Below, piece by piece: positions 2,654-3,145 of a stretch of DNA of 51,761 nucleotides. The stretch lies in the NCBI GenBank assembly GCA_022709795.1, contig JAKLID010000002.1, forward strand, positions 1 to 51,761, in the 5' to 3' direction. This DNA is from Patescibacteria group bacterium. Its GTDB lineage: Bacteria > Patescibacteriota > Patescibacteriia > UBA2196 > GWA2-42-15. The notes under the pieces are model-generated. The model was not told the DNA's origin. It did no database searches and saw only the letters and a program-made list of their open reading frames with translations. Position numbers and translations under genes: made by a program. How positions within the stretch are numbered: position 1 is the first letter of the stretch; every line of letters begins with the position of its first letter.

Positions 2654-2660
2654 ATAAACA

Positions 2661-2723
2661 CGGAACTTATGCGGATAAACGCGGAACTTATGCGGAACAG
2701 GGCGGAACTTACGCGGAATTTTT
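2661..2723. repeat. Heptad-phased repeat arm (three 21-nt units) flanking the GxxExxY gene
   Basis: Reads cggaact|tatgcgg|ataaacg|cggaact|tatgcgg|aacaggg|cggaact|tacgcgg|aattttt. It overlaps the last codons of the gene. An imperfect complement lies at 3105-3140 (ctgcattagttcggccaagttcagccttggttcggcgg). Confidence 0.7.
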
Positions 2724-3098
2724 GGTAAATATTTTGCGTTCTATTTCCACGCCATCTTCAGCCCCAAAATTAATTAAAAATCCCAAGTGGTAACTAGAAC
2801 CCTTTAGATACGTCCAAAATTGTTTTCTGTCGCTGATCAGAATCATCGGTTTACATTTTAATTCAATTATTATCTTATTATCAACGATCAAATCAGGTAC
2901 ATAACTACCAATTAATCGCCCATCTCGTACGACGTTTATTCTTTTTTCTTTCTCCACCTTGAATCCTAATTTTAATAAGTCGTAATAAAGAGAATTATGA
3001 TATATCTTTTCCTTGTGATAATTTCTATATTCTTTATAAATAGCAAAAACCGCACCCCTTATTTTATAAGATTCTTGCTCGTAAAGAAGCTCCTCCAT
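2709..3098 (-). CDS. GxxExxY family protein (PD-(D/E)XK nuclease-like fold)
   Basis: N-terminal IRGAVFAIYKEYRNYHKEKIY matches the G..E..Y signature region, followed by YVPDLIVDNKIIIELKCK (D..ExK-like). The gene is AT-rich and flanked by complementary repeat arms. Confidence 0.8.
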   Translation of the reverse strand: MEELLYEQESYKIRGAVFAIYKEYRNYHKEKIYHNSLYYDLLKLGFKVEKEKRINVVRDGRLIGSYVPDLIVDNKIIIELKCKPMILISDRKQFWTYLKGSSYHLGFLINFGAEDGVEIERKIFTKNSA

Positions 3099-3145
3099 AT
3101 TTTTTCTGCATTAGTTCGGCCAAGTTCAGCCTTGGTTCGGCGGTA

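Follow-up and report, generated by a model that had tools for sequence, protein, structure and literature searches.

Background

Ssn enzymes are small, single-domain GIY-YIG nucleases specific for single strands, and their genes are flanked by inverted repeats of 20-50 nt that the enzymes cleave (Chenal et al. 2025, PMC11893778). The 23S rRNA IVS of Coxiella has a 28-bp stem of terminal inverted repeats, is excised by RNase III and carries two to three tandem GACAGAT heptamers before its S23p orf (PMC4990558). REP and REPIN sequences are associated with RAYT proteins of the Y1/HUH class, the gene for which stands singly in an intergenic location between inverted copies of a putative target repeat. 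Tn7, Mu, En/Spm and the FB elements of Drosophila have ends with multiple sites or subterminal repeats or are fold-back elements, and the TnsA protein of Tn7 is a PD-(D/E)XK nuclease. For the GxxExxY family, which few papers name, no description of a gene-plus-arms element or of the genomic setting was found in the literature searched.

The window analysed here is the whole stretch of 51,761 nucleotides, from a Patescibacteria group bacterium (assembly GCA_022709795.1, contig JAKLID010000002.1), a small CPR bacterium with a 0.93-Mb genome. A cassette of about 490 bp (2654-3145) with a GxxExxY gene lies between lemA and htpX. The features of the locus are as follows.

1760-2653, minus strand: htpX (M48 peptidase, Peptidase_M48; PF01435, E 1.2e-31), downstream neighbour and one border of the insertion site
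2654-2723, no strand assigned: 3′-side arm, three 21-nt units of the ATAAACG-CGGAACT-TATGCGG type with an ATAAACA lead-in, delimited by repeat search and core positions
2709-3098, minus strand: GxxExxY / PDDEXK_3 gene, 129 aa, with Pfam and NCBIfam matches above cut-off
3099-3145, no strand assigned: 5′-side arm, two inverted, diverged 21-nt units (3104-3120 and 3125-3141), ending 2 nt from the lemA stop codon
3146-3700, minus strand: lemA (PF04011, E 4e-62), upstream neighbour transcribed in the same direction and the other border of the insertion site

By analogy, the Ssn family appears to be the nearest functional counterpart in print. Both systems comprise a small single-domain nuclease gene (predicted, for the cassette) with short inverted repeats on both sides, the repeat and the protein diverge together, and both are spread across phyla. 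The folds differ, GIY-YIG in Ssn and PD-(D/E)XK in the cassette. Each SRM has its own palindrome of 20-50 nt, present in up to hundreds of ORF-less copies, whereas the arms of the cassette have no other copy in the genome and are arrays of cores phased at 10.5 bp that pair across the gene. Cleavage has been shown for Ssn and is putative for the cassette.

The ORF-bearing 23S rRNA IVS of Coxiella, Leptospira and Xanthomonas, with its S23p four-helix-bundle orf, resembles the cassette in that a small orf is located in the loop of a terminal-repeat stem with short tandem repeats upstream, and in that the element sits at an existing host RNA helix; the four-helix-bundle genes of the host genome show the same layout. 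In contrast to the IVS, which lies in rRNA and encodes a four-helix-bundle protein, the cassette lies between protein-coding genes and its cargo has a nuclease fold by prediction. The repeat period is 7 in the IVS and 10.5 in the cassette, and a strand-symmetry test (below) gives RNase III processing of the cassette no support. Universal rRNA motifs were absent from the 194 loci scanned, and no GxxExxY gene inside rRNA was found among those.

The arrangement of a single gene between inverted copies of a putative target repeat in an intergenic location is shared with REP/RAYT systems, but the enzyme class and chemistry are different, and REPs are dispersed in many copies whereas the arm of the cassette is unique in its genome. 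The cargo of the cassette is PF13366, not Y1/HUH; the Y1 genes of this genome are found elsewhere, with arms of their own. As in Tn7, Mu, En/Spm and FB, the inverted ends consist of several phased copies of a short unit, in the cassette a candidate for protein binding; unlike those elements, the cassette has no transposase-sized protein or target-site duplication and is only about 490 bp long. Annotation as an integron gene cassette, which would have an attC site 3′ of its orf and stand in an array beside an integrase, was considered and rejected: it is solitary between housekeeping genes, with its arms split around the orf.

The cassette gene and its product

The sequence-only reading of this stretch had assigned the 129-aa minus-strand gene between htpX and lemA to the GxxExxY family, and profile searches bear this out. 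The orf at 2709-3098 (minus) matches PF13366 (PDDEXK_3) with an E value of 9.9e-27 and 94.1 bits (cut-off 22) over model positions 2-116 of 117, and TIGR04256 (GxxExxY) with an E value of 1.5e-26 and 93 bits (cut-off 35); these are its sole Pfam and NCBIfam matches. All three genes, lemA, the GxxExxY orf and htpX, are on the minus strand. By consensus match only, there is a promoter-like site upstream of lemA (3819-3791, minus) and a single terminator-like site, after htpX (1715-1687, minus), with none between lemA, the cassette and htpX.

In an alignment of 44 family sequences, residues D69, E79 and K81 (the D...ExK core), Q93 and Y97 of the cassette protein are invariant, and E30 and Y33 of the ExxY motif are at least 90% conserved. 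The cassette protein has both E30 and Y33, and the glycine of the GxxExxY motif is replaced by Y27. The AlphaFold2 model of the protein (pLDDT 93.3) begins with two helices and continues into core elements rich in strands. Its top Foldseek matches are Cas4 SSO0001, a lambda-exonuclease-like enzyme, Hjc and the EndA/tRNA-splicing endonucleases, all of them weak (TM at most 0.54), and no solved structure matching the protein by sequence was found. Because the fold matches are distant, no specific nuclease subtype can be assigned. The protein is predicted to have a PD-(D/E)XK (restriction-endonuclease-like) fold and to be a nuclease, and with its catalytic residues invariant and a predicted fold of high confidence, the enzyme is probably active. 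The function of PDDEXK_3 was given as 'unknown' in a superfamily survey of 2012 (PMC3424549).

The repeat arms

Three 21-nt units were said to flank the gene on one side and to overlap its stop codon, and they are found at 2654-2723. The unit of this 3′-side arm is CGGAACTTATGCGGATAAACG, with starts at 2661, 2682 and 2703 (CGGAACTTATGCGGA); the third unit, which has one mismatch, contains the TAA stop of the GxxExxY gene (TTA at 2709-2711 on the plus strand) and its last three codons. The imperfect reverse complements proposed for the other flank correspond to the two inverted, diverged units of the 5′-side arm, where 12 of the 15 positions of CCGAACTAATGCAGA (minus strand) agree with the left unit, and where 3122-3139 is 78% complementary to 2693-2710 over 18 nt. 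Across the beginning of htpX, from its start codon into the first codons, lies a degenerate fourth unit (2645-2665; 81% to its neighbour in the array), which may be a chance match or may mean that the array adjoins host sequence or has copied it.

Six CGGA cores on the plus strand, at 2661, 2672, 2682, 2693, 2703 and 2714, are spaced alternately by 10 and 11 nt. On the other side, TCNG (the reverse complement of CNGA) occurs at 3105, 3116, 3126 and 3137, so that the minus strand has four C[C/T/A]GA cores, which are degenerate at the second position (CCGA, CTGA, CCGA and CAGA versus CGGA). The alternation of 10 and 11 nt corresponds to 10.5 bp, about one turn of B-DNA. The heptad that had been proposed as the unit of this cassette is therefore the wrong unit, because the cores lie 10.5 nt apart.

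The repeat pattern has five matches in the window versus 1.19 expected, and in none of 100 shuffles are five reached. The two arms can form an interrupted duplex of 32 bp with an energy of -36.9 kcal/mol, compared with -17.8 ± 3.9 kcal/mol for shuffles, none of which (0 of 1000) is as low. The complementarity, which could have turned out no better than random, is confirmed as real and not due to chance. The stem is mismatched every 2-5 bp and leaves one 21-nt unit unpaired. Folded as RNA, the whole cassette has no extra stability over shuffles (z = 0.09), the significance being limited to the arm-arm duplex. A search of the genome for other copies of the arm words or for an ORF-less twin found none, apart from one stray match to CGGAACTTA and single stray 9-mers.

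Framed genes in the genome and the protein family

The host genome has three GxxExxY genes and eleven four-helix-bundle genes (PF05635, '23S rRNA IVS protein'). The complementarity of the two flanks was scored for 1039 greedy orf calls, with a median of 9 and a 95th percentile of 14.5. The GxxExxY gene between lemA and htpX scores 20 and ranks 20th of 1039, and 11 of the 13 scored paralogues of the two families are among the top 35 (hypergeometric P = 8.6e-16), the other two being a truncated copy and a gene with an over-extended start call. This survey of paralogues for complementary flanking arrays upholds the proposal that two unrelated families of small proteins occupy one architecture, since those 11 are strongly framed. 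Strong framing is also seen for DUF559 (two genes) and for IS200-like Y1 (four to five genes). To judge from their sequences, the four-helix-bundle, DUF559 and IS200-like genes have a common layout, each family with its own specific arms. Framing is not confined to small genes, because two larger genes on contig C1 rank strongest: a 380-aa gene without a Pfam match and a 209-aa lipoprotein-like gene (G000 contig C1:15595-17703) have the strongest flank complementarity of the genome. On contig C67 (9113-9313) of the same genome, a truncated four-helix-bundle gene (66 aa) is a decaying paralogue: its upstream arm is that of an intact copy on contig C16, and the remainder of the gene continues downstream out of frame.

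The expectation that the two families co-vary in copy number is supported in 61 related genomes by a Spearman coefficient of 0.50 (P = 4e-5, uncorrected for phylogeny). Within the genus, the GxxExxY gene is present in 3, 2, 0 and 0 copies. When 72 GxxExxY loci from Patescibacteria, Bacteroidota, Cloacimonadota, Planctomycetota, Proteobacteria and others were compared with controls having mismatched flanks, 53% were above the 95th percentile of the controls and 29% above the 99th. A score of at least 16 is reached by 72% of 18 further CPR loci for inverted complementarity, versus 11% for direct similarity. In four cultured or named Bacteroidota genomes, cassette-specific arms are present in both families, a qualitative observation on well-formed loci only. 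Cross-phylum k-mer enrichment was dominated by many related Flavobacterium loci with CGCAAAG arms and was not used to derive a universal core. By these sequence comparisons, the cassette between lemA and htpX appears to be one example of a widespread gene-plus-arms element.

Among cassettes of the same genome, arm-to-arm similarity within a cargo family reaches scores of 48 (DUF559), 29.5 (four-helix-bundle) and 24.5 (Y1), and the top score across families is 17, between AT-rich arms of low complexity. A lag of 7 or 14 is the peak in 14 of 23 strongly periodic cases of four-helix-bundle arms and in 0 of 22 for GxxExxY arms, in which lags of 9-10, 20, 21 and 23 dominate. The period of the arms tracks the family, being about 10 nt for GxxExxY (10.5 in the lemA-htpX cassette) versus 7 nt for the four-helix bundles.

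The arms of the GxxExxY paralogue on contig C18 are built differently. Five 23-nt tandem units are located upstream, and CGGAT cores share one orientation seven times upstream and four times downstream, against a single inverted core. Because these arrays are mostly direct on both sides, the paralogue forms no long stem; at C18, the phased cores are kept rather than the stem. The suggestion of a stem that forms the unit, with an exchangeable gene as its cargo, is only partly right: the niche is indeed common to several families, but as worded the suggestion is not supported, since the arms are inherited with the gene, their similarity and period follow the cargo family, and C18 has direct arrays without a long stem.

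The arms accompany the gene in other contexts

The closest relatives of the cassette gene in other contexts, L065, L196 and L197 (63-66% identity), are located between rsmI and metG, and their arms can be aligned with those of the cassette (..AATAATGCGAAAAAAT-ATG and TCCGCATAA-GTT..). Homologous arms are kept by GxxExxY relatives of 44-66% identity in other genomic contexts; those of 51-60% identity occupy at least three further contexts, in which the core drifts gradually (GCGGAAC, GCAGAAC, GCTGAT, GCGGAT). Altogether the gene with its arms is found in at least five unrelated contexts.

Some members of the same clade are inserted in frame within host genes. The recG gene is interrupted between its DEQH and TATPIPR helicase motifs at L066:1306-2742 and at L188 (G027:C8, an 858-aa frame), and lepA just before its DTPGH motif at L067 and L189 (G021:C63, an 800-aa frame). 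The arm words are kept in these copies, GACTTACGCGGA corresponding to GAACTTACGCGGA of the cassette. The recG insertions and the lepA insertions are each at the same site in two distant CPR lineages, and the arms are translated as low-complexity linker peptides, with no intein motifs evident. At L191 (G004:C69), no stop separates a recJ-like frame from a GxxExxY domain, and the repeat arm between them (..SDANKYEKHTNSDANKYEYHAN..) is translated; this is either a C-terminal fusion or the result of a lost stop codon.

These comparisons across contexts show that the gene and its arms are one unit, evidently inherited together. Only L195 is nearly identical to the cassette (100% identity), and it is the same locus on a metagenome contig broken inside the arm. 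Because this sole near-identical copy is in the same context and all other relatives are at most 66% identical, mobility can be inferred over evolutionary time only. Internal stops are present in 8 of 66 GxxExxY loci, a frequency that would fit selfish decay and also indicates that the GxxExxY gene is dispensable.

The junction of lemA and htpX

Of 20 relatives compared at this locus, 11 have lemA next to htpX. In two genomes of the same genus the two genes are separated by ORF-less spacers, of about 70 nt in G003 and about 105 nt in G002, and a third, G001, has a different insert of about 780 nt after a spacer of the G002 type. This insert (L047:600-1476, G001:C20) contains a class-I methyltransferase-like frame that a stop codon interrupts, and its spacer begins like the ORF-less heptad spacer of G002. 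More distantly, the gap is 1 nt in G008 and the spacers are 60-207 nt in other relatives. Because four states are found in four genomes of one genus, the junction is a hot spot of turnover.

Significant hairpins were predicted in six of the nine lemA-htpX spacers of relatives that were folded. No resemblance was found between the arms of the cassette and the lemA-htpX spacers of the same-genus genomes and other relatives. The GxxExxY orf has a GC content of 32% (GC3 31.5%), and lemA and htpX have 46% (GC3 47-57%). Most parsimoniously, these sequences indicate that the cassette was gained by insertion into the lemA-htpX intercistronic spacer in the lineage of the host. Inspection of the cassette borders gave no convincing case of a target-site duplication or common target motif, and because the spacer is unlike the empty sites over its full length, the mechanism of insertion cannot be read from them.

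Proposed explanation and alternatives

The preferred explanation, to which about an even chance is given on the strength of the sequence comparisons and the analogy with Ssn, is that the cassette is a selfish unit of a nuclease and its cognate repeats, self-contained as a gene plus arms and analogous to Ssn/SRM, RAYT/REP and the 23S rRNA IVS. The unit would consist of the GxxExxY gene for a predicted PD-(D/E)XK nuclease and two inverted arrays of its own candidate recognition cores, of the CGGA type and 10.5 bp apart. By the comparisons above, it was inserted between lemA and htpX in the orientation of both genes, and it is probably carried on their transcript. The nuclease may bind, and probably cut, the phased cores of its own arms, either in duplex DNA or in a folded single strand, and its action may keep the unit in place or help it to spread, through homing or recombination-type repair, in the manner of Ssn/SRM or RAYT/REP. 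Pairing of the arms might allow the insert to settle at a pre-existing host hairpin with its neighbours undisturbed. A nuclease can be no general requirement of the layout, because four-helix-bundle cassettes have it without one. Counting against this explanation are the uniqueness of the arm words in the genome, unlike the repeats of Ssn/NTS or REP systems, the absence of a target-site duplication, the degenerate second position of the 5′-side cores and the fact that the sole near-identical copy is in the same context.

An explanation at the level of RNA is unlikely, although several features agree with it. In this alternative the cassette would be an IVS-type element, the arms of which pair in the lemA-cassette-htpX transcript and are cut by RNase III to release the cassette RNA, the protein being secondary. 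The architecture matches that of the ORF-bearing 23S IVS, the arms can form the 32-bp interrupted duplex, the cassette and its two neighbours point the same way without an intervening terminator-like site, and relatives mostly have a hairpin at the lemA-htpX junction. However, the frequent mismatches of the stem, the unexceptional fold of the whole cassette and the unpaired 21-nt unit all speak against it. Because selection for a stem in the transcript would favour G-U pairs, an excess of them would be expected on the sense strand, but the counts show no strand bias (67 versus 64 in 13 cassettes of this genome, 167 versus 179 at 41 other loci), which is mildly unfavourable. The phasing of cores at 10.5 nt suits B-DNA and not an A-form stem, the C18 paralogue has direct arrays, and in the copies within recG and lepA the reading frame continues across both arms, as would not be expected if these were removed from the RNA. 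The combination of even G-U counts, 10.5-bp phase, direct arrays at C18 and open in-frame copies tilts toward the arms being DNA-level recognition sites, for which an extra role in RNA is possible.

Two further alternatives were weighed. The model of the sequence-only reading, by which the persistent part is an intercistronic hairpin of the host or some generic fold-back element and unrelated small genes are swapped through its loop, is consistent with the ORF-less hairpins of relatives at the same junction, with the other cargo of G001 in a spacer that starts like the ORF-less spacer of G002, and with a layout common to four unrelated gene families. It is nevertheless very unlikely: the arms of the cassette are unlike the spacers of the same genus and homologous to the arms of GxxExxY relatives elsewhere, and their similarity and period track the cargo family. 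The gene might instead be a resident, non-mobile one, with its apparent insertion due to differential loss. In that case the phased repeats would serve, like operators or iterons, in autoregulation or in the local structure of the chromosome. Operator and iteron arrays typically have short cores in helical phase, and a transposition signature is absent, but this last alternative is highly improbable in view of the patchy distribution within the genus (3, 2, 0 and 0 copies), the foreign GC content, the occurrence in at least five unrelated contexts and in frame in essential genes, and the frequency of pseudogenes.

If the selfish unit of nuclease and cognate repeats is the correct explanation, it would supply GxxExxY/PDDEXK_3, a very large family without an assigned function, with a concrete hypothesis in the form of a predicted nuclease of 129 aa and an adjoining candidate site of 21 nt. 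If the protein reads its own arms, the family would be, like Ssn, a rich source of small sequence-specific nucleases, and a type of repeat that is common between genes in CPR and Bacteroidota would be accounted for. The comparison also ties the long-unexplained ORF-bearing 23S rRNA IVS to a broader gene-plus-arms set that appears to be family-specific, rather than a stem with swappable cargo. A far-reaching extension, decidedly unlikely as a whole, is that a large and so far unrecognised class of minimal mobile elements, of about 0.5 kb each, has GxxExxY proteins as its sequence-specific nucleases. Each element would carry inverted arrays of its own recognition cores, phased at 10 bp, would spread through nuclease-stimulated repair, and would be harmless in intercistronic hairpins or even in frame in essential genes (recG, lepA); the four-helix-bundle IVS proteins would then read a parallel class with 7-nt phasing, which would explain the origin of the 23S rRNA IVS.

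Neighbouring and tandem cassettes

Three framed cassettes of three families occupy successive intergenic gaps within 4.3 kb of contig C18 of the host genome (G000 contig C18:3040-7400).

3201-3608: GxxExxY gene
5838-6338: IS200-like Y1 gene
7029-7379: DUF559 gene

An integron-like array was considered for this region and rejected: housekeeping genes (miaA/miaB-like) are located among the cassettes, and no recombinase is recognisable from the beginnings of the orfs. At L192 (G059:C65:49475-50203), two GxxExxY domains stand in tandem in one open frame of 272 aa, with a four-helix-bundle gene 2 kb away, and on contig C114 of the same genome (G059:C114) a GxxExxY gene and a four-helix-bundle gene adjoin.
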